The notes beneath the pieces were generated by a model. It worked only from the letters and a program-made list of their open reading frames with translations. It did no database searches and was not told where the DNA came from. Positions 8,359 to 63,967 of a DNA stretch of 64,000 nucleotides are shown here, piece by piece. Each line of letters opens with the position of its first letter. The stretch's first letter is position 1. The stretch lies in IMG/VR virus record IMGVR_UViG_3300031787_008607, positions 1 through 64,000 of that record, one strand, 5' to 3'. Source of the stretch: an uncultured virus (IMG/VR IMGVR_UViG_3300031787_008607) (Duplodnaviria; Heunggongvirae; Uroviricota; Caudoviricetes). The translations under genes were made by a program, and so were the position numbers.

Positions 8359-8377
8359 TTCACAACCAACTAATGTT

Positions 8378-8407
8378 AAAACCCCTCAAATTTGAGGGGT
8401 TTTTTTA
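8378..8407 (+). terminator. Intrinsic terminator after dnaK
   Basis: ACCCCTCAAA/TTTGAGGGGT plus T-run. Confidence 0.8.
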
Positions 8408-8430
8408 TTTAATAAAAGTATTTATGAAAT

Positions 8431-11965: not shown

Positions 11966-11981
11966 AGAAAAAGAAAAAAAC

Positions 11982-12413
11982 ATGATTGATTCAATTTTGT
12001 TAGTGGATGATGAGGATTTGTTCCACTTGGTATTTGAGGACAGTTGTTCCTTGTTAGACATCACATTGTCATTAAAGAGTTTGAATAGTTCTGATGAGGC
12101 GGCTAAATTATTTGCTGATTGGCAAAAAAATTCAGATGGACGACCTGAGTGTGTGTTCGTTGATTTGAACATTATCGGTTCATCCTTTGATGGTATTGAA
12201 CTTATCCGTAAGGTTAATTTTGAATATGGTAACCATGTGGTTATTGGTATTATATCTTCAAGTAACGAACCTGAAGAACAGGCTAAAGCAATTCAGGCTG
12301 GTGCTCAGTTTTGGATTATCAAGTCAGATGATATTGAACCAAGATTGGAAGATTTCAAAAAAGATTATGAGGGTTACAAAAACAGAACCGCGCCATTCAA
12401 AGTTTATAAATGA
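11982..12413 (+). CDS. Single-domain response regulator (CheY-like receiver)
   Basis: ILLVDD, VFVDLN, ISSS, IIK motifs. Confidence 0.92.
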   Translation: MIDSILLVDDEDLFHLVFEDSCSLLDITLSLKSLNSSDEAAKLFADWQKNSDGRPECVFVDLNIIGSSFDGIELIRKVNFEYGNHVVIGIISSSNEPEEQAKAIQAGAQFWIIKSDDIEPRLEDFKKDYEGYKNRTAPFKVYK

Positions 12414-13096
12414 TAGTATTAGATAAAAATACAAAGAAGTTATTAATAGAAACTTTTAAGACTAAGAACATTGGTCTTGAAGGTAATATTACTAAATTAA
12501 TAGATGCTCAAGACGACGAGGAGTTCAAGGAGTATCTTAAAACTTGTATTGAAAAAGATACTGCATTAAGAAGAAAACGTTTGGAGATGACTAAAAAAGT
12601 TCAGGTTCAAAATAATGATTTGACAACCTTGAATGAAGAAAATCAAAGAATACTTACTGAACTACAAGAAACATTAGATAGTGTTGAGGAACAGAAAAGT
12701 CAGATTGAATGTCAAAACGCCGAATTAATTACTTGGAAAATGGAGAATGAAAAGATTGGGGCAGAGCTTGTTGAGGCGATGAAACAATCTGAAATGGCAA
12801 GAGTCATCGCTGAGAATGCTAAGAACGAAGCGGAGAACAATTTAGATTTAATACAGAAGAAAACTCAATTTGAGTTGATTAATAATATTGTTAGGGTTGC
12901 TCTTTATGTAATCATAGGTGTTGGAGGAATCACGACTGGAATATATGTTTATTCTATGACAATAGGAATGGATACGGACATCATTGGCTCCACTTGGAGT
13001 AATATGTTTGGTATTCTGTTAACAAATAGTTTCAGTATCGTGGGAACAATACTTGGGGTGAAGTATGGTGCTAATCCTGGCAAGGAAGATAAATAA
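12410..13096 (+). CDS. Coiled-coil protein with two C-terminal TM helices
   Basis: ORF coupled to the response regulator gene. Confidence 0.75.
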   Translation: MIVLDKNTKKLLIETFKTKNIGLEGNITKLIDAQDDEEFKEYLKTCIEKDTALRRKRLEMTKKVQVQNNDLTTLNEENQRILTELQETLDSVEEQKSQIECQNAELITWKMENEKIGAELVEAMKQSEMARVIAENAKNEAENNLDLIQKKTQFELINNIVRVALYVIIGVGGITTGIYVYSMTIGMDTDIIGSTWSNMFGILLTNSFSIVGTILGVKYGANPGKEDK

Positions 13097-19260: not shown

Positions 19261-19941
19261 ATGTTGAAAGTAACCTTAATATCTGACACGCACACTAAAG
19301 AACGAAATGTTCTTGTGAATGGTGGTGACTTGATTTTACATAGCGGTGACGTTATGAACTCAGGTTATAATTGGGAAGATTTGTATGACTTCTTAAATTG
19401 GTTCAGTGAACTACCATATAAGATGAAGGTATTCATTCCTGGTAATCACGACAGATACATTGAGGACAAACCATTTGACGCTTGGAAGATGATTCGTGAG
19501 TTTAACGACAAAGGTGTTGTTTGTTTGATTGATGACTTCGTTGAGTTTGAGGGATTGAAAATCTATGGTAGTCCTTGGCAACCTGAGTTCTACAATTGGG
19601 CATTCAACCTACCACGTAATGGTAAGGAGTTGGAAGAGAAGTGGGCAAACATTCCTGACGATACCGACATCTTGTTAACACACGGACCAGCTTGGGGTAT
19701 CTTGGATACCGTAGTCAATCGTCGTGACGTTAATCTTGGATGTGAGATGTTGGCAAAACGATTGGAGACATTACACCCACTAATCCATAGTTGCGGTCAC
19801 ATCCACACAGGTTATGGGTATGTTGAAAAGAACGGAACACACTTCTTCAACGCATCTATCTTGGATGAGCGTTACAGTCACAACCAAAAACCTTTTGATA
19901 TCACCATTGATGTTGAAAATAAAAAAATAGAAATACTATGA
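19261..19941 (+). CDS. Metallophosphoesterase
   Basis: SDTH, HSGD, GNHD, THGP, GHIH. Confidence 0.9.
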   Translation: MLKVTLISDTHTKERNVLVNGGDLILHSGDVMNSGYNWEDLYDFLNWFSELPYKMKVFIPGNHDRYIEDKPFDAWKMIREFNDKGVVCLIDDFVEFEGLKIYGSPWQPEFYNWAFNLPRNGKELEEKWANIPDDTDILLTHGPAWGILDTVVNRRDVNLGCEMLAKRLETLHPLIHSCGHIHTGYGYVEKNGTHFFNASILDERYSHNQKPFDITIDVENKKIEIL

Positions 19942-20669
19942 TTGAAAAATTAGTTAAAAACAGAACTCCATATCTCGGCAAGATGATATTGAAGTTTGAG
20001 AAACACCCACACTATTCAAGTAGTATGGACGGTAGATTAAATAAAGTTCACCTTAATTTAGGGTTCACCAAATTGGTAACTAGGTTAATACCAAACCAGG
20101 TTATGGAAGGTTACTCAAATATTGACCCCAAGAAGATTGAACTGATTAACAAATACACTGGTGGTGTTATTGGAACTCACAAGTGGGGTGATAATGATAA
20201 TGATGAATTTGTTTTGGAGGATTCCTTCTTAACCAAAGATGGTAAATATATTGGTAACATTGATACCGCTTGGTGGTATTTTCAAAACGCGATGACTGTT
20301 TGTGAAGAATACCCACAAGGAGTTGCTATTGTTTGGAATACTACAAAATGTAATACGTTGGCTAGTGCACAAACGATTAAAGGTTATCGTGGATACTCTC
20401 ATCGTGGAGGTGCAACTTTTAAGATTGGTGACCGATTGTTTGATGAAGAATATAATCCAGTTGTTGAAGATTATGATGAGAACGAATTTAAAAAGTGGTG
20501 GAAAGAATACACCAAGTCATATAAAAACGGTGACGACTTTGACAAAAAATGGATTTATGGTGATGGAATCAAATCGGTAATACCATTCAACAAGAGAGGT
20601 AAAAACATAATTGAAAATTTGGAAGACGCAAGAACTGCGGCAATTAACATGTCAAAATATCTATCATAA
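19938..20669 (+). CDS. Hypothetical protein
   Basis: ORF coupled to upstream gene. Confidence 0.7.
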   Translation: MIEKLVKNRTPYLGKMILKFEKHPHYSSSMDGRLNKVHLNLGFTKLVTRLIPNQVMEGYSNIDPKKIELINKYTGGVIGTHKWGDNDNDEFVLEDSFLTKDGKYIGNIDTAWWYFQNAMTVCEEYPQGVAIVWNTTKCNTLASAQTIKGYRGYSHRGGATFKIGDRLFDEEYNPVVEDYDENEFKKWWKEYTKSYKNGDDFDKKWIYGDGIKSVIPFNKRGKNIIENLEDARTAAINMSKYLS

Positions 20670-25541: not shown

Positions 25542-26084
25542 ATGAAAGAACTAATTAAAAAGATTTTAAAAGAAGAAACAAAGGAAAAGTTTGATTACGG
25601 ATGTGTGATGTTGTATTACGATTTCCCTGAAATGGAAAACATTCATAACATCATTGAACCCAATGACATTTACCACCAAGAAGGTGATAGAAGTTTTGGA
25701 TTGGAAGATGAACCACATACAACATTATTGTTTGGATTACACGATGATGTGACAGATGAAGATGTGTCAAAAGTGTTGAATAAATACAAGTACTCAACTT
25801 GTAAACTATACAATCCGTCTTTATTTGAAAACCCTGATTATGATGTGTTAAAGTTTGATGTTAAGGGTGATAATCTTCATAAGACAAATGCTGATTTAAG
25901 AAGATACCCTCACACCAATTCATTCCCTGATTATCATCCACATACCACAATAGGTTATTTGAAACCTGGTATGGGTAGAAAGTATGTGAATAAACTCAAA
26001 GGTATGAACTATTCATTGTCGCCACAATATGCGGTTTATTCAAAACCAAATGGGGATAAAGTTAGAATGGATATTAATCTTTAA
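25542..26084 (+). CDS. 2H phosphoesterase (Acb1/T4 57B-like) with leader peptide
   Basis: Two HxT motifs (PHTTL, PHTTI); MKELIKKILKEE leader. Confidence 0.75.
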   Translation: MKELIKKILKEETKEKFDYGCVMLYYDFPEMENIHNIIEPNDIYHQEGDRSFGLEDEPHTTLLFGLHDDVTDEDVSKVLNKYKYSTCKLYNPSLFENPDYDVLKFDVKGDNLHKTNADLRRYPHTNSFPDYHPHTTIGYLKPGMGRKYVNKLKGMNYSLSPQYAVYSKPNGDKVRMDINL

Positions 26085-36113: not shown

Positions 36114-36197
36114 GTGATTAAATATATAACATAAATATATAAAATAAAAGTATTTATATTATAATGAATTTGAAGGACAAATTCTATAAATTTGAAT

Positions 36198-36527
36198 ATG
36201 ATTTTAACTGATAAAGTATTAAATAAACTTTTCAATTCGGAATATATTAAAAATATATATCCGATGATTGATAATATTGATGTTAATGTTGATTGGGATG
36301 GTGACGACGCTTTTCCTTTTTATAGACTTCATGTTACTGTTAAGTTAAATGACCCAACGATTAATGAATATAACATTTATGAAAAAGGATTTGACCCACA
36401 TTATCTTTATAAATATCATTTGAAATACCTTCTTAACTTTTTAAATGTTAATTTAAACACGGCACTTATTGAACAAGTTTTTATTAAAGTCTTAAATCCT
36501 GATGGGGAAGAGATAGTCAAATATTAA
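36198..36527 (+). CDS. Hypothetical protein
   Basis: ORF. Confidence 0.65.
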   Translation: MILTDKVLNKLFNSEYIKNIYPMIDNIDVNVDWDGDDAFPFYRLHVTVKLNDPTINEYNIYEKGFDPHYLYKYHLKYLLNFLNVNLNTALIEQVFIKVLNPDGEEIVKY

Positions 36528-36531
36528 TTAT

Positions 36532-37338
36532 ATGAACCTACAAGAACAAATATCGGGTAATAGAATAATGAACAATACAGGACAATTAAATGAGATACAA
36601 TTAAAAGTATTCAATAAAGTTTTAAATAAACTGTTATCCCAAAATTTCCCTTGGTGGTTTGAAGGTATTGAAATATTTCGTGCTGGATTTAATCATGGTC
36701 AGAAAAACTTGTATATGGATGGAAATATTTATGTTGATGCTGATTGGATAGGTGAGCAGTGGATAAAATATAATGATTATAAACCAGTACCTGAATTTGG
36801 GAATTATTACGATGACTATTCTTTTGGTGATTTGATTGGAATAAATGACGGATGGATTGATATTCTCAAAGAAATATTTCTATCAGTATTTAATTCAATA
36901 CACGGAGGGGATTACCCTAAATACCTATCATTTAGTTGGCTTAATGTTAAACCTGTTGAAACAAAAAAAGAAGAAGATATGAGTGAGAATAATTTCTTAA
37001 AAGAACATATAAAAAAAGTATTAAGGGAGGAGACGGGTGAAAGAACCAAACTTGAAAAGGTTATCACTAATGTTATCAACAGGACATTAGCTGAAAAAGA
37101 ATTACCTGAAAACTTCCATAGTGTTGTTGTTGATGTCTACGGAACAAATTACGGAGATGGTTGTATGATAACTTTATTGATGAAAAGGCCTTATAGTGAA
37201 GAAGAATCTGAAATGTTGTTTGATGTTACTAGAGAAGCTAAAAATTTAATTAAATCGTTCTTCAAAGAACATTTCCTTTATGGTATTAGTATTTCAACAT
37301 CAACTATTGAAAATTACATGAAGATGACAAGTGATTGA
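36532..37338 (+). CDS. MNLQE-leader protein, two fused modules
   Basis: Internal second leader LKEHIKKVLREE. Confidence 0.7.
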   Translation: MNLQEQISGNRIMNNTGQLNEIQLKVFNKVLNKLLSQNFPWWFEGIEIFRAGFNHGQKNLYMDGNIYVDADWIGEQWIKYNDYKPVPEFGNYYDDYSFGDLIGINDGWIDILKEIFLSVFNSIHGGDYPKYLSFSWLNVKPVETKKEEDMSENNFLKEHIKKVLREETGERTKLEKVITNVINRTLAEKELPENFHSVVVDVYGTNYGDGCMITLLMKRPYSEEESEMLFDVTREAKNLIKSFFKEHFLYGISISTSTIENYMKMTSD

Positions 37339-37349
37339 ATATTAATTAT

Positions 37350-37658
37350 ATGAACCTACAAGAACACATAAGAAGAGTATTAAAAGAGGAAACTGAAAAG
37401 TTTGATAAGGTGGAGCATTTTATGAAAACTGCTAATACATTATTCAGCAAACTAAAATTTAAGGCAGTTAAACGTGTTGAGTTTGATTATGACGAAAGGA
37501 TTGAAGGGTTTATTGTTAATGTATTTTATGATAGACAATATGCGATAGATAATCCCAAAGGTTTCAATAAAGTAAAACAAGGATTTATTAAAGAAATTGG
37601 TTCAATCATTACAAAGTTTTTCCCATTCAAATTTTATATTTATTTACATGACGACTAA
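37350..37658 (+). CDS. MNLQE-leader hypothetical protein
   Basis: MNLQEHIRRVLKEE. Confidence 0.75.
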   Translation: MNLQEHIRRVLKEETEKFDKVEHFMKTANTLFSKLKFKAVKRVEFDYDERIEGFIVNVFYDRQYAIDNPKGFNKVKQGFIKEIGSIITKFFPFKFYIYLHDD

Positions 37659-37667
37659 TTATATAAT

Positions 37668-38429
37668 ATGAACTTACACGAACACATAAAAAAAGTATTA
37701 AGAGAAGAGGTTAACAAAAAGTATTTGAAACCGAGTGAAAAATCCGAGAAATTTATTTTGGATAGATTGAATAGTATGGCTTCAGGTGCTGAAATATACC
37801 ACGTTGAAAGTTATAAAACAAGACATGATTTTGAGTTTTGTAAAAATGGGAAACAAATAATGAATCTCGCATTGTTCTTTGAAGAAACTGACGATAATAC
37901 CCCAACGTCTGAAAGACAATTTGAATCTTCAACATTATCAGTACAAGAAGATTTTGTTGGTGGACTATTAGGGGCGTTTCCTGTTAGAAGAAATTATCTT
38001 TATTATATAATTGAAGAATGGTTTGAAGATACTTTTTTAAGTAAAATCTCAGATATGATAGGTAGAAATGATATATCTGTTGAAGAATTATCATTTAATG
38101 ATAGGTCATATACGTGTGTCCCACCAATTAAAGAAGTACCTGAAGGAGTTTCTCAAGACGAGATGATTAAGGTTATTATGAACAATACACTATGGCGTAA
38201 AAAAGATTTATTGGCGTTAGAAGAAAGAGAACCTGGGTCTATAGAATTTATGTATTTACAAAAACTTCGTAATAATGAGGTTAATAGATTAGATGGTGGT
38301 AATCCAATGGGGGAAAGCGAAATAAAAGAAGGTGAATTAACTGAGAAATGTTGGAAAGGATATACTCAAAAAGGAATGAAAACTATGTTTGGTAAGAGAT
38401 ACCCCAACTGTGTTAAAAAGACAAAGTAA
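37668..38429 (+). CDS. MNLQE-leader protein with C-terminal CWKGY...PNCV micro-domain
   Basis: Leader plus Cys motif. Confidence 0.75.
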   Translation: MNLHEHIKKVLREEVNKKYLKPSEKSEKFILDRLNSMASGAEIYHVESYKTRHDFEFCKNGKQIMNLALFFEETDDNTPTSERQFESSTLSVQEDFVGGLLGAFPVRRNYLYYIIEEWFEDTFLSKISDMIGRNDISVEELSFNDRSYTCVPPIKEVPEGVSQDEMIKVIMNNTLWRKKDLLALEEREPGSIEFMYLQKLRNNEVNRLDGGNPMGESEIKEGELTEKCWKGYTQKGMKTMFGKRYPNCVKKTK

Positions 38430-38842
38430 TGAACCTACAAGAACACATAAGAAGAGTATTAAGGGAAGAACTATATTCTCCATCAGGAGATGAATATACA
38501 CCTGGTAAATTTGTTGTTCATAAATCAAATCCTATATGGAGAGAGAACATAGAACTTAAAGGTTTACAAACGTATGTGGGTGATTGTTACCAACAACATG
38601 TTGGAGGTGATGTGGAATGTAAGCCATCAATATTTGCAACAGATTCATTAGATAAGAAACAAATATTTGATTCAACCTATGATGATGACATATGGATTAT
38701 TGATACAGAATGTGCGGGTGTTACTTGGTATAAAGATAGACATTTTGAGGGTGGTGACTACAAACACCATATAGTTACATTTGATAACATATCACCTGAT
38801 TGTTTAAGATTAATACATAAAGGAACAGGGAAAAGTAATTAA
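38429..38842 (+). CDS. MNLQE-leader protein, possible ADP-ribosyltransferase-like fold
   Basis: VHKS...I..KGL...IFAT...WIID pattern. Confidence 0.5.
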   Translation: MNLQEHIRRVLREELYSPSGDEYTPGKFVVHKSNPIWRENIELKGLQTYVGDCYQQHVGGDVECKPSIFATDSLDKKQIFDSTYDDDIWIIDTECAGVTWYKDRHFEGGDYKHHIVTFDNISPDCLRLIHKGTGKSN

Positions 38843-38843
38843 C

Positions 38844-39464
38844 ATGAACCTACAAGAACACATAAGAAGAGTATTAAGGGAAGATAAAAAGAGTAAATTC
38901 ATTATGGATATTGTTGATAAACATGGTGTTTATAAGACGGCAGAAATGATGGGTGTGAGTCTGACCTATTTATACAAAATGTCTGATTTAAAAATTGATG
39001 AATTTGTTGCTAAAGAACTATTAGCTGAAAATATTGTAAATGGTAATTTACCTGCAAAATATAAAGGATTTGAAATTGAAATAAGTAGTGATGATGTGTT
39101 TTATTGGACAAGACAGTTTAAATCGGGACACTATCCACCTAATGTATTAGAAAAAATATGGGTAATGGCAACACCTTTTTTCGCAACTGCTGATTATACA
39201 CCCGTTGAACTTGATTGGTATGGATTAGAAGATGACTCAAATAAACCTAATGTAGGAATATACGATACAAGTGGTGATGGTGATTATTTTGTGGAACTTA
39301 CACATAATACACATAATGGTAACTATTTTTTTAATAGTGTTGATAATTTATTTGATTGGTATAATACGTTTTATTTACCAGGAGTGTATGAAATAATCTT
39401 GGATAGATTCATACCTCAAGTCCAAGAAGACACAGACGAGAGACTTAGAGATAAAAATACTTAA
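38844..39464 (+). CDS. MNLQE-leader hypothetical protein
   Basis: ORF. Confidence 0.75.
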   Translation: MNLQEHIRRVLREDKKSKFIMDIVDKHGVYKTAEMMGVSLTYLYKMSDLKIDEFVAKELLAENIVNGNLPAKYKGFEIEISSDDVFYWTRQFKSGHYPPNVLEKIWVMATPFFATADYTPVELDWYGLEDDSNKPNVGIYDTSGDGDYFVELTHNTHNGNYFFNSVDNLFDWYNTFYLPGVYEIILDRFIPQVQEDTDERLRDKNT

Positions 39465-39517
39465 GATACGGACTTAGGACCGTTGTAGTTTAGGCTACAT
39501 TAACCCCATTGAATTCG

Positions 39518-40252
39518 CTACTCAGTGGGGTTTTCATTTAATATCTCTTCCACCCCTTCAAACACGGGTAGTTCGGTTCCACCAGTTCTGAGTACCTTAT
39601 GATTTAAGACCTCTTCCACCATGCGGAGTGGTTGGGCGATGCAAGAAGATGTTGTGGATACCTTATGATTTAAGACCTCTTCCACCTTGGAATATTGAGT
39701 GTTACATACTCTCAGAGTTGTGGATACCTTACTATTTAATACCTCACCCAACTTAGAGCTTGTCGTGTGGCGAAACGCACAGGTTGTGGATACCTTACTA
39801 TTTAAGACCTCTTCCACCCTTGAAAGAGGATGTAAGAACGTATGCCGCGTTGTGGATATCCTATGATTCAAGACCTCTTCCACCAACAAAATGGAATACC
39901 AACCGTATTCCTTTGTTGTGGATACCCTATGATTTAAGACCTCTTCCACCCTTGAAGTTCTTTTGTTACCTGGGTTCACTGTTGTGGATACCCTATGATT
40001 TAAGACCTCTTCCACCCAAGAAGCGAGTATTGGTTCAAAATCTTCACGTTCCAAAGAAAAAATGGTGAAGAAACTTGGAAAAAAACTATACCTCCAATAC
40101 AATGTACCAGTGTTTTCAAATTCAAAATACCAATACTTTTCTTCTCTATTAATTAACCATATTGAATCTTTATATGGGATTATCTCCGCATTACCTAATT
40201 CTTTGTATAGTTGTTTGAATACAACCTGTTTTAATCTATCAGTTACTTTCAT
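39518..40252 (-). CDS. Array-bearing protein 1: conserved ~80-aa domain plus (VEEVLNHKVSTT + 10 variable aa) units
   Basis: ORF; paralog of three other genes. Confidence 0.8.
   Translation of the reverse strand: MKVTDRLKQVVFKQLYKELGNAEIIPYKDSIWLINREEKYWYFEFENTGTLYWRYSFFPSFFTIFSLEREDFEPILASWVEEVLNHRVSTTVNPGNKRTSRVEEVLNHRVSTTKEYGWYSILLVEEVLNHRISTTRHTFLHPLSRVEEVLNSKVSTTCAFRHTTSSKLGEVLNSKVSTTLRVCNTQYSKVEEVLNHKVSTTSSCIAQPLRMVEEVLNHKVLRTGGTELPVFEGVEEILNENPTE
39519..40016. repeat. CRISPR-like array 1: 36-bp repeat x7 plus partial, 7 unique 30-bp spacers, inside ORF
   Basis: GTTGTGGATACCTTATGATTTAAGACCTCTTCCACC-type units at 39585, 39651, 39717, 39783, 39849, 39915, 39981 (period 66). Confidence 0.9.
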
Positions 40253-40253
40253 A

Positions 40254-40979
40254 TTATTTTTGATTTAATACCTCATCTACCGATTCCGCTCTTCTTGAGA
40301 TGTATTCTTCCGTTTTGGATACCTTACGATTCAATATATCTTCCACCAAAAAGTTTCCTTCACCTACGTCACGGACTGTTTTGGATACCTTAATATCCAA
40401 TACCTCTTCCATCTCAAGATTACCTCTTGGGTGGAGATACTCCGTTGTAGATACCTTACGATTCAATACCTGTTCCACCAAATAGTTGTTAGATAAGGTC
40501 ATGTTTTTTGTTGTGGATACCTTACTATTCAATACCTCTTCCATCATATCATTCGAAGTGAAACTGAATTGCTGAGTTGTAGATACCTTACTATTCAATA
40601 CCTCTTCCACCCCTCGCTTAAAATTTCTGAAACGGCTTGCAGTTGTGGATACCTTACTATTCAATACCTCTTCCACCCCGCCATCCATGACATATTGCGT
40701 GCTGTCAGTTGTGGATACCTTACTATTCAATACCTCTTCCACCCAAGATGAAATAATTGGTTCAAAATCTTTGGACTCCAAAGAGAAAAAAGAAAAGAAA
40801 GATTTGAAATAATCATATCTCCAATATAAACATCCACTTTCAGTTAGTTGGAAATACCAGTATTTTTCTTCTCTATCAATAAACCAATAACTGTATTGGG
40901 TAGGGATAATTTCCACATTACCTAATTCTTTATATAGTTGTTTGAATATGAGTTGTTTTAATCTATCCGTTACTTTCAT
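40254..40979 (-). CDS. Array-bearing protein 2
   Basis: ORF; same architecture. Confidence 0.8.
   Translation of the reverse strand: MKVTDRLKQLIFKQLYKELGNVEIIPTQYSYWFIDREEKYWYFQLTESGCLYWRYDYFKSFFSFFSLESKDFEPIISSWVEEVLNSKVSTTDSTQYVMDGGVEEVLNSKVSTTASRFRNFKRGVEEVLNSKVSTTQQFSFTSNDMMEEVLNSKVSTTKNMTLSNNYLVEQVLNRKVSTTEYLHPRGNLEMEEVLDIKVSKTVRDVGEGNFLVEDILNRKVSKTEEYISRRAESVDEVLNQK
40258..40743. repeat. CRISPR-like array 2: 7 repeats plus partial, 7 spacers
   Basis: Repeat starts 40312, 40378, 40444, 40510, 40576, 40642, 40708. Confidence 0.9.
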
Positions 40980-41733
40980 TTTCTTTTTTGTTGTTTAATG
41001 CCTTTTTCACCCAAACACTATTTAATACTTCTTCCACTGACCTTTCGGAAAATAAGGAATTATTTTTAGTTGTAGATACCCTACTATCTAATACTTTTTT
41101 TACCTTTCTTTTTTGGGTGGCGTCTACTTCAAAAGTTTCGGATACCTTATGATTTAATATTTCTTCCACCCCGCAGCGTTGAAGACCTTCAAAACCGACT
41201 GTTGTGGACACCTTACTATCTAATACCTCTTCCACCTGCTGGTAGTATGCTCCACTCCATGATTCAGTTGTGGACACCTTACTATCTAATACCTCTTCCA
41301 CCGAAGTTTGTTGTCTTCTAGCGGAAAGAGGGGTTGTGGATACCTTATGATTTAATACCTCTTCCACCTCGTGATGTGCTCGGCCAATGGGAAATTCGGT
41401 TGTGGATACCTTATGATTTAAGACCTCTTCCACCTGAAGTAAGCGGTGGGCCAATGTATTACCTGTTGTGGATACCTTATGATTTAATACCTCTTCCACC
41501 CAAGAAGATATTATTGGTTCAAACTCACTCTGTTCCAAAGAGAAAATACTGAAAAACGATGGGAAGAATGAGTATCTCCAAAATAAACATCCCTCTTTAG
41601 ACAACTGAAAATACCAATAACAATTTTCCCTATCAATGAACCATACAGAGTCTTTATATGGGATTATCTCCACATTACCTAACTCTTTGTATAGGTGTTT
41701 GAATATGAGTTGTTTTAGCTTATCTGTAACCAT
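40963..41733 (-). CDS. Array-bearing protein 3
   Basis: ORF; minus-strand TATCTTTG promoter 4-5 nt before ATG. Confidence 0.8.
   Translation of the reverse strand: MVTDKLKQLIFKHLYKELGNVEIIPYKDSVWFIDRENCYWYFQLSKEGCLFWRYSFFPSFFSIFSLEQSEFEPIISSWVEEVLNHKVSTTGNTLAHRLLQVEEVLNHKVSTTEFPIGRAHHEVEEVLNHKVSTTPLSARRQQTSVEEVLDSKVSTTESWSGAYYQQVEEVLDSKVSTTVGFEGLQRCGVEEILNHKVSETFEVDATQKRKVKKVLDSRVSTTKNNSLFSERSVEEVLNSVWVKKALNNKKENESNG
41015..41500. repeat. CRISPR-like array 3: 7 repeats plus partial, 7 spacers
   Basis: Repeat starts 41069, 41135, 41201, 41267, 41333, 41399, 41465. Confidence 0.9.
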
Positions 41734-41769
41734 AAGCACAAAGATACTAAAAAACTTTGAAAATACAAA

Positions 41770-42108
41770 TTAATAATCAGTTGGTATTTTTAACGACCAT
41801 TGACTGTATAATTTATGATTGGTCATATTACCCCCCAAGTTCAGTTTTTTCTTGACCCATTGTCCGATAACTGATTCAGCTTTATACGACTCTATAGAAA
41901 AGAATGAAGATACTTTTTGAATTAATTCAAAATAGATAAAACACAACTCATCATTACGATGTCTACCACCATATTTAATCTGAGCAAACCAATCGTCTGA
42001 ATTTACAAAGTATGTACTGGCACCTTTTTTAAGGATATCAAAATTCTGGCTATCAAGAAACTTGAGTATTGCTTTATCTAATTGTGATTCTGTGATTAAA
42101 TATTTCAT
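41770..42108 (-). CDS. MKYLITES-leader family protein
   Basis: Leader plus shared ~90-aa domain. Confidence 0.75.
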   Translation of the reverse strand: MKYLITESQLDKAILKFLDSQNFDILKKGASTYFVNSDDWFAQIKYGGRHRNDELCFIYFELIQKVSSFFSIESYKAESVIGQWVKKKLNLGGNMTNHKLYSQWSLKIPTDY

Positions 42109-42476
42109 GATAATGTTATACTTCTAACTGATTTAACTTCGTAGTCAGGAAAGAACTCATTAAATACATCTGACATAATGAATTTGCCGTGAACTAACCA
42201 AATAGGATGAGGAAAGGCTGTACCATATACATCGTCAAAGTTCCTATTATAGTATAAATCACCACTTGGTTTATTATAAACCATTACGGCGTTTTGGTCA
42301 CTATCAAATAGGTTAAGTCTTATATCATTTTCAGAATACGAGTCAACCAAATTTTCAAAATAACGAATCATTTTAGGTTTTAGTCTTTCGTATTGTTCCG
42401 TATATTCAAAATCTCTCCAAGTTCTTTCAAGTTCGGATATTAATTTATGTTGTGACTCGGTAATAATATACTTCAT
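42105..42476 (-). CDS. MKYLITES-leader family protein
   Basis: Leader. Confidence 0.75.
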   Translation of the reverse strand: MKYIITESQHKLISELERTWRDFEYTEQYERLKPKMIRYFENLVDSYSENDIRLNLFDSDQNAVMVYNKPSGDLYYNRNFDDVYGTAFPHPIWLVHGKFIMSDVFNEFFPDYEVKSVRSITLS

Positions 42477-42483
42477 GTAATAA

Positions 42484-42503
42484 TAAATATAATTATATTT
42501 ATA
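42484..42503. promoter_or_regulatory. Back-to-back TATTTAT motifs (palindrome TAAATATAATTATATTTA) between divergent genes
   Basis: Between starts 42476(-) and 42509(+). Confidence 0.6.
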
Positions 42504-42508
42504 ATATT

Positions 42509-42832
42509 ATGAACCTACAAGAGAATATAAAAAAAGTATTAAGGGAAGAAACAGATTTTTCACCAAAGTTCAAAAGAAGATTGAATAGATTTAAATCGTT
42601 TGTATGGGATAACAATGTAACTAATTATCCCTGTGATTTTGAAAACTTTGAAGCGTTCATGCGTGGTATACAACATGAAATTATGGACATGATTACAGAT
42701 GGTTCTGATACCGATGGCCCGTTGTCTGATTGGTTAAAATATAAAGATGCTGTTACGTATGTAGAAAACTACATGAGGGATGACTTAGAAAAGTTTTATA
42801 ATAAGCAATGTGTTGATGTCTTATACGTATAA
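42509..42832 (+). CDS. MNLQE-leader hypothetical protein
   Basis: Leader. Confidence 0.75.
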   Translation: MNLQENIKKVLREETDFSPKFKRRLNRFKSFVWDNNVTNYPCDFENFEAFMRGIQHEIMDMITDGSDTDGPLSDWLKYKDAVTYVENYMRDDLEKFYNKQCVDVLYV

Positions 42833-43177
42833 ATTAAGAAATTGTTCCACTGATATTCCAAGACCTGAGATACCAAAAAGTTCCATAAATTCAGACTCAT
42901 CATATCTATCACATCCGTTATTGATAATCCAAGGAATATCTGTAACATAATTCATCTGATAAAGTATATTATAACTATTATCTAATTTTATAAGATACAA
43001 CGGACCATAGTAATCCATACTAAGTCTTCTTCGTAAACCATCATCGGTAATACAGTTATCAAAAGACATCATTACATCAATTAAATCTGGGTCAATCTCC
43101 ACACGACCCGTAAGGTCAATATTAAACTTGTTTTTAATGAATGTTTTTAATTTAGATTCAGTAATTAAGTATTTCAT
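42821..43177 (-). CDS. MKYLITES-leader protein
   Basis: Start moved to leader ATG. Confidence 0.75.
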   Translation of the reverse strand: MKYLITESKLKTFIKNKFNIDLTGRVEIDPDLIDVMMSFDNCITDDGLRRRLSMDYYGPLYLIKLDNSYNILYQMNYVTDIPWIINNGCDRYDESEFMELFGISGLGISVEQFLNLYV

Positions 43178-43193
43178 TATATATAAATATAAG

Positions 43194-43604
43194 TTAACAA
43201 TTTCCTGTATTATAAACCTCAATATTATGACCTCTAATTAGACCGCCACCCAACTGATATAAAGCCTTAGAAATAACATCTCTATACATACTTCTTGTAC
43301 CTTCCTCATAGATATACCTTCCCACATTTGCAGGGGCTGGCTTAGGTATGTAGACAACCAAATTCATAGAGTCACGAGTGGGGATGATATTATAACTACA
43401 ATACATCAAGACGGTTGAGATATCATTTTCAATTATAGTTTTTGTTAGAAAGATAATATCTTCTCTTGTTCCTTTAAGACCAATCTCATCAATAATATCT
43501 TCAGGTTCCTTATCAGTCATTTTACACAGAGTACGCATACCAAATTTCTCTAATAAGGGTTTAAGAGTTTTGTTATATTGATTCTCAGTGATTAAGTATT
43601 TCAT
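43194..43604 (-). CDS. MKYLITE-leader protein
   Basis: Leader. Confidence 0.75.
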   Translation of the reverse strand: MKYLITENQYNKTLKPLLEKFGMRTLCKMTDKEPEDIIDEIGLKGTREDIIFLTKTIIENDISTVLMYCSYNIIPTRDSMNLVVYIPKPAPANVGRYIYEEGTRSMYRDVISKALYQLGGGLIRGHNIEVYNTGNC

Positions 43605-43616
43605 TATATGTAAATA

Positions 43617-43949
43617 TTAGTTATAGTGAACCCTCAAAACTTCGGACTTGCTAAAGACAACCCATTGCGCGTAACTGACTTCCATTTGTAAGGTATCCGC
43701 AACCCAATTACCGATAATGTTTTTAGAGGTGACTTCATTTAAAGAAAATAATACAGAGATGTCCTCAATTAAATTCAACGTTATCTGACCAACACCATTT
43801 TTTTTATTATATCTAATTTGGGCATGTTCATCCTCTTCTGAATTAACAAAGAATATATTACTACTTGTTTCAATCTGAATAAAGTTCTGACTATCCAAAT
43901 ATCTAAAGATTACTCTGTCTAATTGTGATTCGGTGATAAGGTATTTCAT
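43617..43949 (-). CDS. MKYLITES-leader family protein
   Basis: Leader plus shared domain. Confidence 0.75.
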   Translation of the reverse strand: MKYLITESQLDRVIFRYLDSQNFIQIETSSNIFFVNSEEDEHAQIRYNKKNGVGQITLNLIEDISVLFSLNEVTSKNIIGNWVADTLQMEVSYAQWVVFSKSEVLRVHYN

Positions 43950-43952
43950 ATA

Positions 43953-44273
43953 TTAATAATCAAAAAACATAACATCAACATCAAATGCTTTACTAAACCA
44001 ATCAGAAATGAATTTACCTGATTGCTCTTTATCAAGTGGATACATGGATGAAAACTTATCTAAAAAAGATTCATCAATAAATAATCTACCATCGCTGTGG
44101 TCAAACTCCATTAAAATAAAAAAATCAGGGCCTCTTTCAGGGCTATATATATTAATGAAATCACTATCAGATGTTCTATCATAATCTAATAATTTATTTA
44201 ACTCAGATATCATTAAATTATTTATTACCGATTTGACTTTATCTAATTGTGATTCGGTGATGAGGTATTTCAT
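43953..44273 (-). CDS. MKYLITES-leader family protein
   Basis: Start moved to leader ATG. Confidence 0.75.
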   Translation of the reverse strand: MKYLITESQLDKVKSVINNLMISELNKLLDYDRTSDSDFINIYSPERGPDFFILMEFDHSDGRLFIDESFLDKFSSMYPLDKEQSGKFISDWFSKAFDVDVMFFDY

Positions 44274-44306
44274 ATAAAATATAAATATAATCATATTTAT
44301 AATAAT

Positions 44307-44678
44307 ATGAACTTAGAAGGGACAATTAAAAGGATACTCAAAGAAGAATTCAAAAAGGATAAGATAATTGACGGATATATTACGTCATTAATTAAACCTG
44401 TTGGTCGATTTAAAGAGGGGTATAATCATGACGCTGGTAGATTTGACATCACTGACAATAATGATAATTTACGTGCTACCATATTCTATAACAAAAGAAG
44501 AGACGCAATGGAAGTTATGATTGATGAGGATATATGGAATCTTTTGTCTTCAGTGTTCTCAAGGGAAACTTGGGATGAGATAAATGATAGTTTGGTTAAA
44601 TGGTTCCAAGAAAATTACGATGAGTTAGAAGATATCTACGAAGTTAATACGTTTGATAATGCTGAATATGCTTACTAA
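44307..44678 (+). CDS. MNL-leader hypothetical protein
   Basis: MNLEGTIKRILKEE. Confidence 0.75.
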   Translation: MNLEGTIKRILKEEFKKDKIIDGYITSLIKPVGRFKEGYNHDAGRFDITDNNDNLRATIFYNKRRDAMEVMIDEDIWNLLSSVFSRETWDEINDSLVKWFQENYDELEDIYEVNTFDNAEYAY

Positions 44679-44679
44679 T

Positions 44680-45009
44680 ATGAACTTAAAAGAATCTATA
44701 AAAAGAATACTGAGGGAAGAACTATCGGCGAGAATTAAAAGAAGACTTTCTAATGATGAAATGGAAAATGAGTTTCTTGAATCTTTTGAAGATGCTTATC
44801 GTATTACAAAGAACAGAAAGGTTTTAAGTTCACATTTTTTAGATGAGTTAGTCTACACAACAATAACCGTTATGATGGATGGGGTACATTGGAGATTTGT
44901 TAGTACATTACCTGAAGATGAATTTTGGTATGATGATATACACCAAGGGTTAGAAAATCATTATAGAAAAAGAATTACACGGATGTATAATGAAAGAAAA
45001 GGTTTCTAA
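44680..45009 (+). CDS. MNL-leader hypothetical protein
   Basis: MNLKESIKRILREE. Confidence 0.75.
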   Translation: MNLKESIKRILREELSARIKRRLSNDEMENEFLESFEDAYRITKNRKVLSSHFLDELVYTTITVMMDGVHWRFVSTLPEDEFWYDDIHQGLENHYRKRITRMYNERKGF

Positions 45010-45012
45010 AGA

Positions 45013-45291
45013 TTAATTAGAGTTTAAGAATTTAAGTAATGCTCTAATATATTCGGAACGTTTATCATAGAATTCAGTATCATTATCATATTGAAAAAAC
45101 TCTTCACCTCTATGTCTATCAATGAACTTTTCAATTAATTCATAAGCGTAGTCATCTCTGTCTGCAGAATCTTCAAAATCTTCTTCATCCATAATGTAGT
45201 TATAATCATCCCTAAGTGCTTCCAATTCATCCATTGTAAACCTCCTAAGTAAAAATGCTTCTAACTGTGATTCTGTAATTAAGTATTTCAT
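45013..45291 (-). CDS. MKYLITES-leader protein
   Basis: Leader. Confidence 0.75.
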   Translation of the reverse strand: MKYLITESQLEAFLLRRFTMDELEALRDDYNYIMDEEDFEDSADRDDYAYELIEKFIDRHRGEEFFQYDNDTEFYDKRSEYIRALLKFLNSN

Positions 45292-45294
45292 ATA

Positions 45295-45591
45295 TTAAAA
45301 CATCCAGCCTGTACTTTTAACTTCCATATCTAAAGTGTTCTCAACCCATTTACCAATAAGTTCCTCTGAGTAGTTACTATCTAAACTAAATAGACTTGTA
45401 ATCTCACTTATTAAATCATAATAAATGATACACTTATGATTATATATATCATAAACAACATAGGCATAATCATCATGACCTTTTCTAACAAAATAAATGT
45501 GAGTAGTTTTATCAAGTATCTTTAGGTCCAAACCATTCAGATACTTCATAACAACTTTTTCTAATTTTGATTCTGTAATAATATATTTCAT
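45295..45591 (-). CDS. MKYIITES-leader family protein
   Basis: Leader plus shared domain ending WVENTLDMEVKST. Confidence 0.75.
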   Translation of the reverse strand: MKYIITESKLEKVVMKYLNGLDLKILDKTTHIYFVRKGHDDYAYVVYDIYNHKCIIYYDLISEITSLFSLDSNYSEELIGKWVENTLDMEVKSTGWMF

Positions 45592-45905
45592 AATATTAAT
45601 CTTACATCTATTGTTATGCCGTGAACCTCATATGGTGCAAAACCTGTATATGGGTTAAGTCCGCTTGTTTTAATACTCAAAAAATCTTTTATCGACCTTC
45701 TAATCTCACGTTCTAAATTTAATTCCTTTAGTTTATTAAGATTATAATGGTAAGGGTTGGTTATATATGAATCATCAATATGAGAAACGTAAACATCAAT
45801 TAACATCTCATCATCAAACTCACTCTTTCTAACTTTAATCTCGTCAGGAGAGTATAATGTATTAATTAGTTTTACAATTGCTTTAACCTTATGCTCAATC
45901 TTCAT
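45588..45905 (-). CDS. Hypothetical protein
   Basis: ORF; TATTTAT upstream. Confidence 0.65.
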   Translation of the reverse strand: MKIEHKVKAIVKLINTLYSPDEIKVRKSEFDDEMLIDVYVSHIDDSYITNPYHYNLNKLKELNLEREIRRSIKDFLSIKTSGLNPYTGFAPYEVHGITIDVRLIL

Positions 45906-45973
45906 ATTATAATAAATACAAAGATAAGTATAAACTCGTATAGGATTATAATGGGGAGTGGGGGAAATAATTA

Positions 45974-46270
45974 CTATTTAATTATAATTCCTTCAACTCT
46001 TCTATCCAAAGTATTCTCAACCCATCTAGCAATAACATATTTAGCATTATCAAATTCTATAGAGAAGAAATCTTTAATCTCATCAATTAACTCAAAACTT
46101 ATTCCACAGTCACCACTTCTAAAGTATTCGATTAATGTGTCGATATATTCATCATCTTCCGAATTAACAAAGTATATTGCGTTTCCTCTTTTAATCTGAA
46201 TAAAGTTCTTAATATCCAAATATCTAAAGATTACTTTATCTAATTGTGATTCTGTTATGAGGTATTTCAT
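45974..46270 (-). CDS. MKYLITES-leader family protein
   Basis: Leader plus shared domain. Confidence 0.75.
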   Translation of the reverse strand: MKYLITESQLDKVIFRYLDIKNFIQIKRGNAIYFVNSEDDEYIDTLIEYFRSGDCGISFELIDEIKDFFSIEFDNAKYVIARWVENTLDRRVEGIIIK

Positions 46271-46300
46271 TGTATATAAATATCATAAAGATAATAACTA

Positions 46301-47095
46301 TTATTGATTTAATACCTGTTCCATCACATAATTCATAACAGACATTTCTACATCCGTTGTACATTCCTTATGATTTAATACTTCTTCCACCCCTCTTGTG
46401 AAGGGTCCAGAATATGCTTCCAATGTTGATACCTTATGATTTAATACTTCTTCCACCAATGAATGTTCGGGGTATTTGAGAATGGTGGTTGTAGACACTT
46501 TAACATTATGACTTAATACATCTTCCACCCGTGTTCGGATATGAGCATTGTGAGTATTAGTTGTGGATACCTTACTATTTAATACCTCTTCCACCTTCCA
46601 AGGAACACGAACTTTAACATCGCACGTTGTGGATACCTTATGATTTAATACATCTTCCACCATCATGCTTTCAACACCGCTACCTGTCACGGTTGTGGAT
46701 ACCTTATGATTTAAGACCTCTTCCACCTCTCTCCCATTATTATACCTGCTATCATCCGTTGTGGATACCTTATGATTTAAGACCTCTTCCACCTTGTCCG
46801 TTGTAATTGGAAGTGGAATGAAGGTTGTGGATACCTTATGATTTAAGACCTCTTCCACCCAAGAAGATAGAACAGGACAAAAATCATCCGAGCTCATTGA
46901 GAATATTTGAAAAAACGAATTGAAAAAATCGTATCTCCACCATAAAGTACCTGACTCATCAAGTTCAAAGTACCAATATTTATTATCCCTATTAATGAAC
47001 CATGTAGACCCATTATAAGGAATAATCTCACAATCACCCAACTCTTTATATAGGTGTTTAAAAATAAGTTGTTTTAATCTATCTGTAATAACCAT
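46301..47095 (-). CDS. Array-bearing protein 4
   Basis: ORF; minus-strand TATATTTG promoter just upstream. Confidence 0.8.
   Translation of the reverse strand: MVITDRLKQLIFKHLYKELGDCEIIPYNGSTWFINRDNKYWYFELDESGTLWWRYDFFNSFFQIFSMSSDDFCPVLSSWVEEVLNHKVSTTFIPLPITTDKVEEVLNHKVSTTDDSRYNNGREVEEVLNHKVSTTVTGSGVESMMVEDVLNHKVSTTCDVKVRVPWKVEEVLNSKVSTTNTHNAHIRTRVEDVLSHNVKVSTTTILKYPEHSLVEEVLNHKVSTLEAYSGPFTRGVEEVLNHKECTTDVEMSVMNYVMEQVLNQ
46304..46859. repeat. CRISPR-like array 4: 8 repeats plus partial, 8 spacers
   Basis: Repeat starts 46356, 46422, 46488 (6-bp insertion), 46560, 46626, 46692, 46758, 46824. Confidence 0.9.
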
Positions 47096-47275: not shown

Positions 47276-47989
47276 ATGGAACAAAAAGTAATAAATGAGT
47301 TTGTGATGGATTCAATCGATGAATTAAAATCGGTTGACAGAAAGTACAAAAAATTTAGTGAACTTATGTCTAAACATAATCCGTATGAACTCTCGGTATT
47401 TTGTGATACCCCTAAAAAGATTGTTGATTTTGTAATGATTAGTCATAAACAAACATCAAGACAAACCATTATGGGTAATTTATTAGAATCAATTGCGATT
47501 AAAATTAGTTCAGTAATACTAGGAGGGTACAAATCTAAGGAAGAGTGTACCGATTTAGAGTGGGTTAATGATGATTTATTTCACTATAGAGGATGGAAGT
47601 CAAGTCCTAAATGGTGTAACGCTGACCAAAAAAAGAGAGTTAATATTAAGGTGGGGGAACTAAAAGAAAATAATGATTTCGGTAGTTTTAAAGTTCTGAC
47701 TTCTTACGGTAAGACCACCAAAAAAAATACGGAAAAAAACTTTACACAGTTATCGGGGCAAGACTCGTGGTATGAAATCAGTAACGACCCTGAGATGTAT
47801 AATAAAGTTATGATTGCCATTGTTAAACACTCCAAATATCTTAATCAGGTGATAGAGGATATTTACTCATCGAATGTTAAAGAATCGGTAGAATGGGTGG
47901 ATAGAAACTTTACAAATAAGGATAAAACAATTAATTTTATTAAAATAAATGAGTATGTCAGCGGAAGGAATAAAGTTACAGTCAGCTAA
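47276..47989 (+). CDS. Putative type II restriction endonuclease
   Basis: MGNLLE...DLE...KSSPKWCNADQ PD-(D/E)xK-like motif; adjacent to MTase. Confidence 0.6.
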   Translation: MEQKVINEFVMDSIDELKSVDRKYKKFSELMSKHNPYELSVFCDTPKKIVDFVMISHKQTSRQTIMGNLLESIAIKISSVILGGYKSKEECTDLEWVNDDLFHYRGWKSSPKWCNADQKKRVNIKVGELKENNDFGSFKVLTSYGKTTKKNTEKNFTQLSGQDSWYEISNDPEMYNKVMIAIVKHSKYLNQVIEDIYSSNVKESVEWVDRNFTNKDKTINFIKINEYVSGRNKVTVS

Positions 47990-48818
47990 TGGTAATACTA
48001 TTGAGTTATTTCATGGGGATTCGTTAGATATATTAAAATTAATTGATGATAATTCAGTTGATTTAATTGTTACGTCTCCACCATATTCTGACCAAAGAAA
48101 ATCAACATACGGTGGAATACATCCTGACAAATATGTGGAATGGTTTTTACCAATAAGTAAAGAATTACTTAGGGTATTAAAACCAACAGGTTCCTTTGTT
48201 CTTAATATTAAGGAAAAGGTATATAACGGTGAGAGACACACATATGTTTTGGAACTTATTATTGCAATGAGGAACCAAGGTTGGTTGTGGACTGAAGAAT
48301 ATATGTGGCATAAGAAGAATTCATTTCCTGGCAAATGGCCAAACAGATTACGAGATGCGTGGGAGAGATTATTACATTTCAATAAGGAGAAAAAGTTTGA
48401 TATGTATCAAGATAATGTTAAAGTTCCCATAGGTGATTGGTCTACAAAAAGATTGGCCAACCTAAGTGATACAGATAAGAAAAGAGATGTCTCCAAAGTA
48501 GGAAGTGGTTTCGGTAAGAAAATAGAAAATTGGGTAGGTAAAGAAATGGTATTACCTGATAACGTATTATATATGGCAACAGAGTCGTCTAATAAAGGAC
48601 ACTCAGCGGCATACCCTGAATCATTACCTGAATGGTTTATTAAACTCTTTACTAAAGAAGGTGATGTTGTGTTAGACCCATTTTTAGGTAGTGGCACAAC
48701 ATGTAAAGTTGCAACTGACTTAAATAGAAATTCCATAGGTATCGAATTAAATGATGAGTATTTTAATTTAACATTAAATAAGTTAAATGAATATGTGAGT
48801 AATGAAACAATAAATTAA
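47949..48818 (+). CDS. N4-cytosine/N6-adenine DNA methyltransferase (beta class)
   Basis: TSPPY before VLDPFLGSGTT. Confidence 0.93.
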   Translation: MSMSAEGIKLQSANGNTIELFHGDSLDILKLIDDNSVDLIVTSPPYSDQRKSTYGGIHPDKYVEWFLPISKELLRVLKPTGSFVLNIKEKVYNGERHTYVLELIIAMRNQGWLWTEEYMWHKKNSFPGKWPNRLRDAWERLLHFNKEKKFDMYQDNVKVPIGDWSTKRLANLSDTDKKRDVSKVGSGFGKKIENWVGKEMVLPDNVLYMATESSNKGHSAAYPESLPEWFIKLFTKEGDVVLDPFLGSGTTCKVATDLNRNSIGIELNDEYFNLTLNKLNEYVSNETIN

Positions 48819-63142: not shown

Positions 63143-63967
63143 TTATACTGTTACTTCTTGTTGTAGTAGTTCGTAAGCTCTTGCTAAACGGGTCATCCCA
63201 ATCCCACCACCAAATCTTGGGAAGAAATCATGAGATAAGAATTCTTCTAATTCCTTCTCAACTCTTTCTTTTCCGAATAGTTCAAAAAGTTTTTCAGAAT
63301 ATTTTCCATTTTCTATTGTGTAGAAGTTATTTTTCATTTCTTCTACGTTAGAACTTCTTTCTGCGGAACCAATTGTTTCTTGTCCGTAAAGAATTACATC
63401 AACTTTGTTGAATATTTTGTTTTCACTTTCTCTCATGTTCCAAAATGGGTTTGTTCTGTATGGGAAATTTTGAAGTGAGACGACTGAACCTTTTTCTTCC
63501 CACATTCTTGTTTCGTGTTCGTTTTCTAAAATTGAAACTCCACCGTACTCTTCACATACATCATCGTAGTTAACTTCTACAGGTGAATCAAAACCTAAAT
63601 AATCTAAAAGTTCAGATTCAAGTTTTAACATTTCTTTCATTCCACCTTTTGATTCGAATTCAAACATTGGAAAAATCATTTCGTGACGACCTGGAATTGG
63701 GTCTTTTTCTTGTCTATAAGACGTTGAAATACAATAGACACCGTTCCATTCAGGATTCTTAAGAAGTTCGTATTCTAACCACATTTGACCCGTCTGTGGT
63801 AGTGGCCATACTTCTCCTTGATAATTGAATGTTGTTATTGAGTGTGGATTTTCACACGCCGCCAAGATTGATAATCTTGATTGAGTTGGAACTTCTTTAA
63901 AACCTTTGTTTTGGAAGAATGTTCTCATCTTTTGAACTAACTCGTTGTAAGTTTCTGTGTTTTTCAT
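63143..63967 (-). CDS. Class II Asp/Asn-tRNA-synthetase-like catalytic-domain protein without anticodon-binding domain
   Basis: LPQTGQ, SYRQE...RH...F.MFEFE, ETIGSAER, GGGIGMTRL; only 274 aa. Confidence 0.8.
   Translation of the reverse strand: MKNTETYNELVQKMRTFFQNKGFKEVPTQSRLSILAACENPHSITTFNYQGEVWPLPQTGQMWLEYELLKNPEWNGVYCISTSYRQEKDPIPGRHEMIFPMFEFESKGGMKEMLKLESELLDYLGFDSPVEVNYDDVCEEYGGVSILENEHETRMWEEKGSVVSLQNFPYRTNPFWNMRESENKIFNKVDVILYGQETIGSAERSSNVEEMKNNFYTIENGKYSEKLFELFGKERVEKELEEFLSHDFFPRFGGGIGMTRLARAYELLQQEVTV

Follow-up and report, generated by a model that had tools for sequence, protein, structure and literature searches.

Each of four paralogous genes in an uncultured phage ends in a tandem array of 36-nt repeats separated by 30-nt inserts, which raises the questions of where the inserts come from and why they stay in frame. 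The DNA analysed here (the window) is the first 64 kb (64,000 nt) of the virus record IMGVR_UViG_3300031787_008607, which is 132,705 bp long, has 31% GC and is estimated to be 45% complete. A T4-like terminase, portal and major capsid protein are encoded in the window, and the record is therefore a fragment of a jumbo phage genome. The listed sequencing runs carrying near-identical DNA include lake and freshwater samples and no RNA dataset; the raw-read runs that were checked held 2 and 3 reads, and two contig runs held fragments only. We propose, with a probability of about 0.6, that the arrays are protein-coding, CRISPR-style recorders of host DNA, probably written by a type II-C system of the host, which diversify a host-facing protein.

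In-frame arrays and polarised repeat decay

The four ORFs, all on the minus strand, have a common 79-aa N-terminal region followed by 22-aa units, each of which corresponds to one 36-nt repeat and one 30-nt insert, in frame at the end of the gene. The features are as follows:

39518..40252, minus strand: array gene 1, 244 aa, with its array at 39519-40016 and the weakest decay gradient (ORF and repeat analysis)
39951..39980, minus strand: newest insert of array 1, a 30/30 antisense copy of a Bacteroidota MFS transporter gene (locus L167)
40254..40979, minus strand: array gene 2, 241 aa, with the conserved 79-aa N-terminal region and an in-frame array (ORF)
40246..40743, minus strand: array 2, with 7 full 36-nt repeats, a terminal half repeat and 7 inserts of 30 nt
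40708..40743, minus strand: first (growth-end) repeat of array 2, whose 5' half is predicted from models of paralogues to encode the end of the domain's last helix
40963..41733, minus strand: array gene 3, 256 aa from ATG (ORF)
41003..41500, minus strand: array 3, with 7 full repeats and a half repeat; inserts 1-3 match host genes and inserts 4-6 do not
41501..41508, minus strand: leader-like junction, Ser-Trp codons giving TTG just before the first repeat, at the same position in the other three genes
43617..43949, minus strand: array-less short paralogue with one repeat-like 36-mer (43668-43703) at the same Trp junction (hhalign 97.7% to the array family)
41770-42108, 45295-45591 and 45974-46270: similar short paralogues
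46301..47095, minus strand: array gene 4, 264 aa, with its array at 46290-46859; inserts 1 and 2 match host-genus genes exactly

One repeat of array 4 has a 6-nt insertion, giving a 72-nt step. In the DNA set from related contigs the step is 66 nt in 263 of 272 cases, so that constant-length repeats alternate with unique constant-length spacers as in a CRISPR array. The 27 window inserts counted below exclude the distal inserts at 39555-39584 and 41039-41068, which lie before half repeats. No Pfam or NCBIfam family was found for array gene 2, and family and fold searches gave no match in Pfam, NCBIfam, Rfam or Atlas, no clear fold in the PDB (best Z 5.4) and no Foldseek match at E <= 0.001. 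The viral matches of the array proteins were uncharacterised phage proteins only, and the four window proteins were absent, letter for letter, from the cluster collection. Promoter and terminator scans remained at chance level.

The first-pass annotation, made from the sequence letters, had described repeats that are intact beside the N-terminal domain and degenerate at the distal end of all four arrays. The repeats to which it had assigned positions are all found there, and the drifted repeat starts and peptides that it quoted are present, as are the NSK-type sub-variant in array 2 and the NHK-type in array 4. The polarity is clear in arrays 2-4 and weak in array 1. Counted from the domain outwards, mismatches to the array's own consensus are 0,0,1,1,3,4,4,14 in array 2 (40708 to 40246; Spearman 0.98) and 0,1,0,4,4,4,9 in array 3 (41465 to 41069; rho 0.90), and the gradient in array 4 also has a rho of 0.90. 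Array 1 gave 1,1,3,2,6,0,3 (rho 0.27, not significant); comparison with its first repeat, the terminal half repeat included, raised rho to 0.80, a measure that leans positive by construction. The pooled within-array permutation p was 5e-5, or 1.5e-4 without the last repeat of each array. Half repeats end all four arrays, as had been claimed, with 2-3 mismatches in the 5' 18 nt and 11-14 in the 3' 18 nt. Related contigs hold 49 distinct in-frame arrays, 38 of them testable, and rho was positive in 36 of these. Adjacent repeats in the related-contig arrays differ by 2.5 bases at pair 1-2 and by 6-7 at pairs 4-7, as would be expected if copying acts on the first repeat.

Host origin of many inserts

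A scan of JGI metagenomes with the newest insert of array 1 found two non-array sites, namely a 30/30 exact antisense match inside an MFS transporter gene (L167) and a partial match in a homologous gene. A 95%-identical relative of the L167 transporter is named as coming from a Flavobacteriales MAG, and a Bacteroidota genus of 27 genomes holds the transporter at up to 99%. Ordinary chromosomal genes of this one genus are matched by 14 of the 27 window inserts with 0-4 mismatches, and the matches fall on insert coordinates when the array region is searched against the host genus. This chromosomal origin had escaped the first-pass annotation. In array 2, inserts 1, 2, 3 and 7 match host-genus genes with 4, 2, 1 and 3 mismatches, respectively, insert 2 being exact to the host in a relative's variant. 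No source was found for the other 13 window inserts, which are soft misses because 11-27 candidates were scored per genome. With four related contigs added to the window, 26 distinct inserts were traced at 0-4 mismatches to ordinary genes, among them those for pyruvate kinase, Hsp90, NAD kinase and TonB receptors. Twelve of these inserts are sense and 14 antisense to their source genes, and 6 are in frame; a codon-mixture excess of in-frame sense inserts (0.44-0.50 vs 0.24-0.29) was dropped after tracing gave 6/26.

Host matches are concentrated beside the domain. They were found for 10 of 12 window inserts at positions 1-3 and for 4 of 15 further out (p = 0.006), and among 40 distinct inserts from 9 arrays for 13/18 proximal and 6/22 distal ones (p = 0.01). 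Within the matched inserts, mismatch to the host does not rise with position (rho 0.17). The 30-nt ends are flush, with the host base at -1 equal to the last base of the repeat in 5/26 cases and that at +1 equal to the first in 5/26, both at chance level. Host third codon positions hold 22 of the 30 mismatches (19 inserts), and GC is 43% in the inserts, 42% at the host loci and 31% in the phage.

Inserts of arrays 1-3 had no significant match as a source in 50,697 phage records, one insert scanned against viral contigs matched none, and 197 insert sequences gave 0 matches outside arrays in three phage records (G000, G001 and G313). No self-targets were found in the record's own contig. A search of 301 Bacteroidota genomes across the phylum, with two candidates scored per genome, gave weak matches (27 at E <= 0.01, best 4.9e-4), of which the sole insert-overlapping one was rejected as it needed a gap. 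Breakdown of the host chromosome during infection is established for T4-like phages, and inserts drawn from host rather than phage DNA would fit such a source.

Protein-level selection and turnover of units

In-frame stops are absent from all 87 distinct inserts of DNA-detected arrays on 18 contigs and occur in 22-51 of the 87 in the other five frames. As 65% of random host 30-mers lack an in-frame stop, the chance that all 27 window inserts would do so is 9e-6. Homologous proteins are stop-free by construction and were excluded from the open-frame evidence; a count of 168/169 open inserts in a larger DNA set was also discarded as biased, the reading having reached only 60 nt past a stop. Changes between copies of one insert were synonymous in 19 of 33 cases against 10.9 expected (p about 0.001), an excess drawn from 33 changes in about 14 insert clusters that overlap the larger DNA set used for omega. 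In this larger set omega was 0.32 for inserts, 0.33 for the N-terminal domain and 0.65 for repeats. To judge from these sequence patterns, the arrays appear to be kept as protein and are presumably translated.

AlphaFold predicts a confident domain at residues 1-87, the last helix of which takes in repeat 1 as far as its midpoint. Confidence is lost along the middle of the tail (pLDDT under 50). One model has an ordered last unit (pLDDT about 80), a prediction hinting that repeat strands may be able to dock on the domain. In an alignment, the repeat peptide corresponds to the C-terminal helix-strand of the array-less neighbours (hhalign 97.7%).

Among 8,000 candidates scored, 1,083 homologues were recognised, with lengths that step by 22 aa. 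The best 120 homologous proteins contain 568 inserts in 264 clusters, 178 of which are singletons; as these proteins are related, the insert counts are not independent. The share of singletons among inserts falls from 0.53 at position 1 to 0.10 at the last, and the order of shared inserts is kept in 140 of 146 co-occurring pairs. The same insert was present twice within one protein in a single case among the 568. These values, together with the proximal host matches, bear out growth at the domain-proximal end, as the earlier comparison with leader-end growth of CRISPR arrays had supposed. The singleton gradient in the DNA set is weak (0.59 at position 1 vs 0.47 at the last).

In 486 pairs of close relatives the share of private inserts by relative position is 0.80, 0.70, 0.51 and 0.33, rising to 0.67 at the tip, and 37 of the 264 clusters occur in more than one lineage. 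Gain is therefore polar, yet deletion, exchange and tip turnover are frequent; internal deletions, exchange of cassettes between lineages and turnover of the last unit are common in these arrays. The comparison of related genomes suggested in the first-pass annotation thus agrees in that differences are greatest by the domain and shared inserts are ordered, and departs from it in that the last position varies too. Its statement that the newest peptide "always" lands directly beside the folded domain holds as proximal growth and is overstated in two respects: deletion and recombination reshuffle the units, and the first repeat is itself part of the domain, as the predicted last helix enters VEEVLN.

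Some family members (L128, L118, L129 and L137) have arrays that are decayed, stopped early or frame-shifted, and in some homologues the repeat at the end of the protein is read in a different frame.

Candidate writers, alternatives and genomic context

The repeat may also be constrained as DNA. Its first Val codon is GTG in 33 of 36 distinct first repeats (GTG usage in the phage is 0.10), and positions G25 and A34 are fixed in 34/36 when other third positions vary; this is indicative, the first repeats being related to each other. TTG occurs in 20 of 36 distinct junctions, with ...TG forced by the Trp codon. The codons before the array, which had been likened to a leader, do mimic a leader junction, as TTG/GGTG (the slash marking the junction) is also found in a type II-C array of the host genus. 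The peptide given for them, ...I(I/L)SSW, applies to arrays 2 and 3 (IISSW); array 1 has ILASW and array 4 VLSSW.

This type II-C locus (G909, L218) encodes cas9, cas1 and cas2, and like the phage arrays it has 30-nt spacers and, read from the cas2 side, a TTG/GGTG junction, a CACAAC repeat end and decay at the far end. Its repeat matches that of the phage in the first 4 nt and in 9 of the last 12. Unlike the phage array it is non-coding, has a 47-nt repeat with another core and was found in 1/27 genomes of the genus, all Cas1 searches of which were made on incomplete assemblies. Neither a closer 36-nt repeat in a host array (JGI metagenomes) nor an evident 36/30 array with phage-like ends (236 host-family genomes, 1 single match) was found. 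On the leader side of the 26 source sites no PAM motif survived 320 tests (best single-position p = 0.001); a pyrimidine pair YY at -3/-2 in 15/26 sites was noted post hoc, the flanks being taken from related species and not from the true donor. According to one study, a II-C Cas1 fills a 36-nt type VI-B array in trans, both repeats being 36 nt long and a PAM being present, and such filling is doubted where repeat lengths differ (PMC8092290). In another Bacteroidota, a 47-nt-type II-C system is reported to have a PAM and a second array without growth (PMC6008519). With matching junction ends but a 47-nt repeat, the host II-C enzyme is the best candidate and not a clean fit.

A CRISPR-type integrase seems to be at work here, adding host DNA to a translated gene in the following way. 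The 3' end of a small phage domain would double as an integration site (TTG/GGTG...CACAAC). An integrase of the Cas1-Cas2 type, for which the type II-C enzyme of the host, acting in trans, is the likeliest candidate, would insert a 30-bp piece of the host chromosome at the domain-proximal junction in the course of infection, and the event would copy the first 36-nt repeat. Since 36 + 30 is a multiple of three, each event would add 22 codons, of which 12 encode an unchanging helix-strand motif and 10 are new. Selection would purge phages with a newly acquired stop, older units would mutate, and recombination between repeats would delete or swap units, leaving most arrays with about 3-9. The product would be a folded domain with a tail in which docking motifs recur and random peptides of host origin lie between them; its likeliest role is to generate diversity in a host-facing phage protein. 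This explanation is weakest on which integrase acts and on the role of the tail.

The same recording array could instead be written by an unrecognised phage integrase with its own 36/30 ruler, as a self-contained diversification system, which we regard as possible without favouring it. The 22-aa period is kept across 413 clusters (50% identity) despite a diverging repeat peptide, host Cas1 is rare, the repeat length is unlike that of the host, there is no clear PAM, and Pfam lacks a family for about half of 107 shared phage proteins. Against this, the junction ends match the host II-C array, and the phage records searched yielded no such enzyme: Cas1 was absent from 9 records, 3 of them complete (one sub-threshold match, E 0.005), Cas4, Cas2 and reverse transcriptase (RVT_1) were absent from 5 records, 2 of them complete, and a profile of 7 Bacteroidota Cas1 proteins found nothing in 849 phage ORFs, its best hit being a 5'-3' exonuclease at E 0.11. 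Among the neighbouring genes no enzyme recurred conspicuously. The wider claim that freshwater jumbo phages encode a non-Cas1 machine of their own, which would cut the host chromosome into 30-mers and enter these in time order in translated genes, as an evolving peptide library selected for its action against the host, is doubtful.

It is unlikely that the functional product is RNA, acting as guide or decoy towards a host Cas13b or Cas9, whether for host knock-down or as an anti-CRISPR, and that the frame is open merely because the end of the gene is needed. A loose repeat-end pattern with 36/30 spacing retrieved 24 loci in species genomes, all Bacteroidota, and Cas13b was encoded by the adjoining large ORFs in 10/10 tested; the phage arrays have the orientation of type VI-B arrays, and huge phages with host-matching spacers have been published (PMC7162821). 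However, the identities of the phage repeat to the Cas13b repeats (18-22) are mostly set by the search pattern, which fixes 14 of them, and 35 phage repeats have no consensus hairpin (pair 2-35 in 2/35) and no U-rich VI-B loop. RNA targeting requires antisense inserts, whereas 12 are sense and 14 antisense; the targets are an unselected mix of genes, and insert changes are synonymous in the phage frame. Cas13b was absent from 4/4 host-genus genomes tested (all incomplete, with the positive control found) and from 5/5 phage records (45-82% complete).

Some observations concern the likeness to Cas13b-type repeats. At the same Trp junction, short paralogues of related phages (L127:4690-4840, L123) have another type of array, which starts one base later, has GTTG...CAAC ends and 29- and 30-nt inserts, and is out of frame after the first insert. 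The 36-mer at 43668-43703 resembles the reverse complement of Cas13b-type repeats (24/36, and up to 26 in short paralogues of relatives; the random best-of has a mean of 15 and a maximum of 21), and a Cas13b-type repeat yields a similar V-E/D-x-x-L peptide in either orientation. Split or half repeats were also seen at one end of bacterial type VI-B arrays (L034, L044, L047, L051).

We consider it quite improbable that the arrays are a tolerated by-product, in which host Cas1-Cas2 hits the end of the gene through its chance likeness to an integration site, nothing beyond the first helix and an open frame is of importance, and the inserts serve as neutral linkers or the site as a sink for the host integrase. 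The confident part of the predicted domain stops inside repeat 1, inserts are gained and lost freely, array-less paralogues have one repeat-like element, and two relatives have short out-of-frame arrays at this junction. Stops after repeat 1 should then be harmless, yet none of the 87 inserts carries one; insert omega equals that of the domain, and at the repeat ends the third positions stay conserved in spite of the codon usage. Reshuffling by recombination of the cassettes of an ordinary tandem-repeat protein, with no capture de novo, has very little to commend it as a full account: cassettes are common to lineages and paralogues (37/264 clusters), the order conflicts in 6/146 pairs and the tip is variable, and it holds as a secondary process, but exact repeat-flush 30-nt copies of host genes are concentrated at one end and 178/264 clusters are singletons, so that it is refuted as the origin of the inserts.

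The reading of the arrays as translated recorders of host DNA sets them apart from known systems. In Flavobacterium columnare, type VI-B (Cas13b) arrays are filled in trans by II-C Cas1-Cas2, and they resemble the phage arrays in their 36-nt repeat, 30-nt spacer, ..CACAAC far end, 5'-end growth, lack of an own cas1 and occasional spacers from the host genome (PMC8092290). In contrast, the phage array lies inside a gene, in frame, without an effector or a clear PAM; its repeat starts with GGTG and lacks the VI-B loop and a consensus hairpin, and stops occur in 0/87 of its inserts against about four in ten bacterial VI-B spacers in the equivalent frame. Cas-less phage arrays and mini-arrays are likewise compact and phage-borne, with some spacers matching the host; as described in two papers (PMC7162821, PMC11656645), they borrow host Cas proteins, give guide or decoy RNA, have host-like or host-identical repeats and target mostly viruses. 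The present arrays differ in being coding and under protein-level selection, with a repeat predicted to lie within a folded domain and not identical to that of the host, and in that 26/26 traced inserts are host chromosomal.

In diversity-generating retroelements, shufflons and integron cassettes, dedicated DNA rearrangement diversifies part of a protein or a gene set. Unlike in the retroelements, no reverse transcriptase and no template/variable repeat pair was found, and the inserts are unrelated host sequences, not mutated copies; unlike integron cassettes and shufflons, the arrays hold no whole-gene cassettes and import 30-nt pieces of the host in time order. The arrays work like CRISPR adaptation in their repeat-spacer geometry, their polarised growth with a degenerate far end and their spacers copied from DNA elsewhere, and are not a type VI-B array, an anti-virus mini-array or a diversity-generating retroelement. 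The literature covered, in which subscription journals are mostly absent, yielded no paper describing translated, host-filled phage arrays.

On this reading, CRISPR-style spacer capture would be used for protein instead of guide RNA, and random host DNA from any strand and frame would become selected coding sequence, ten residues per step and in dated order. Such arrays would offer an example, observable in nature, of non-coding frames giving rise to new peptide sequence. The phage genome itself would reveal which host an uncultured jumbo phage infects, together with a record of that host's history. Were the host Cas1-Cas2 the writer, the repeat-length rule for adaptation in trans would be relaxed; a phage-encoded writer would be a new integrase with recording uses.

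The surroundings of the array genes include a dense block of small paralogues (36192-46270), whose genes begin MKYLITESQ or MNLQEHIRRVLREE, and the array-domain profile matches at least 9 ORFs of the virus record. An EcoO109I-like restriction endonuclease and an N6/N4 methylase form a pair directly upstream of array gene 4 (47276-48818). Candidate anti-defence genes encode a Tad6 Thoeris inhibitor (19938-20669, E 6e-17) and, weakly and below the cut-off, an Acb1 anti-CBASS protein (25542-26084, E 5e-4). The window also holds a phage-borne DnaK with two histidine kinases and one response regulator (6487-13096), as well as a stand-alone catalytic domain resembling class II tRNA synthetases (63143-63967).
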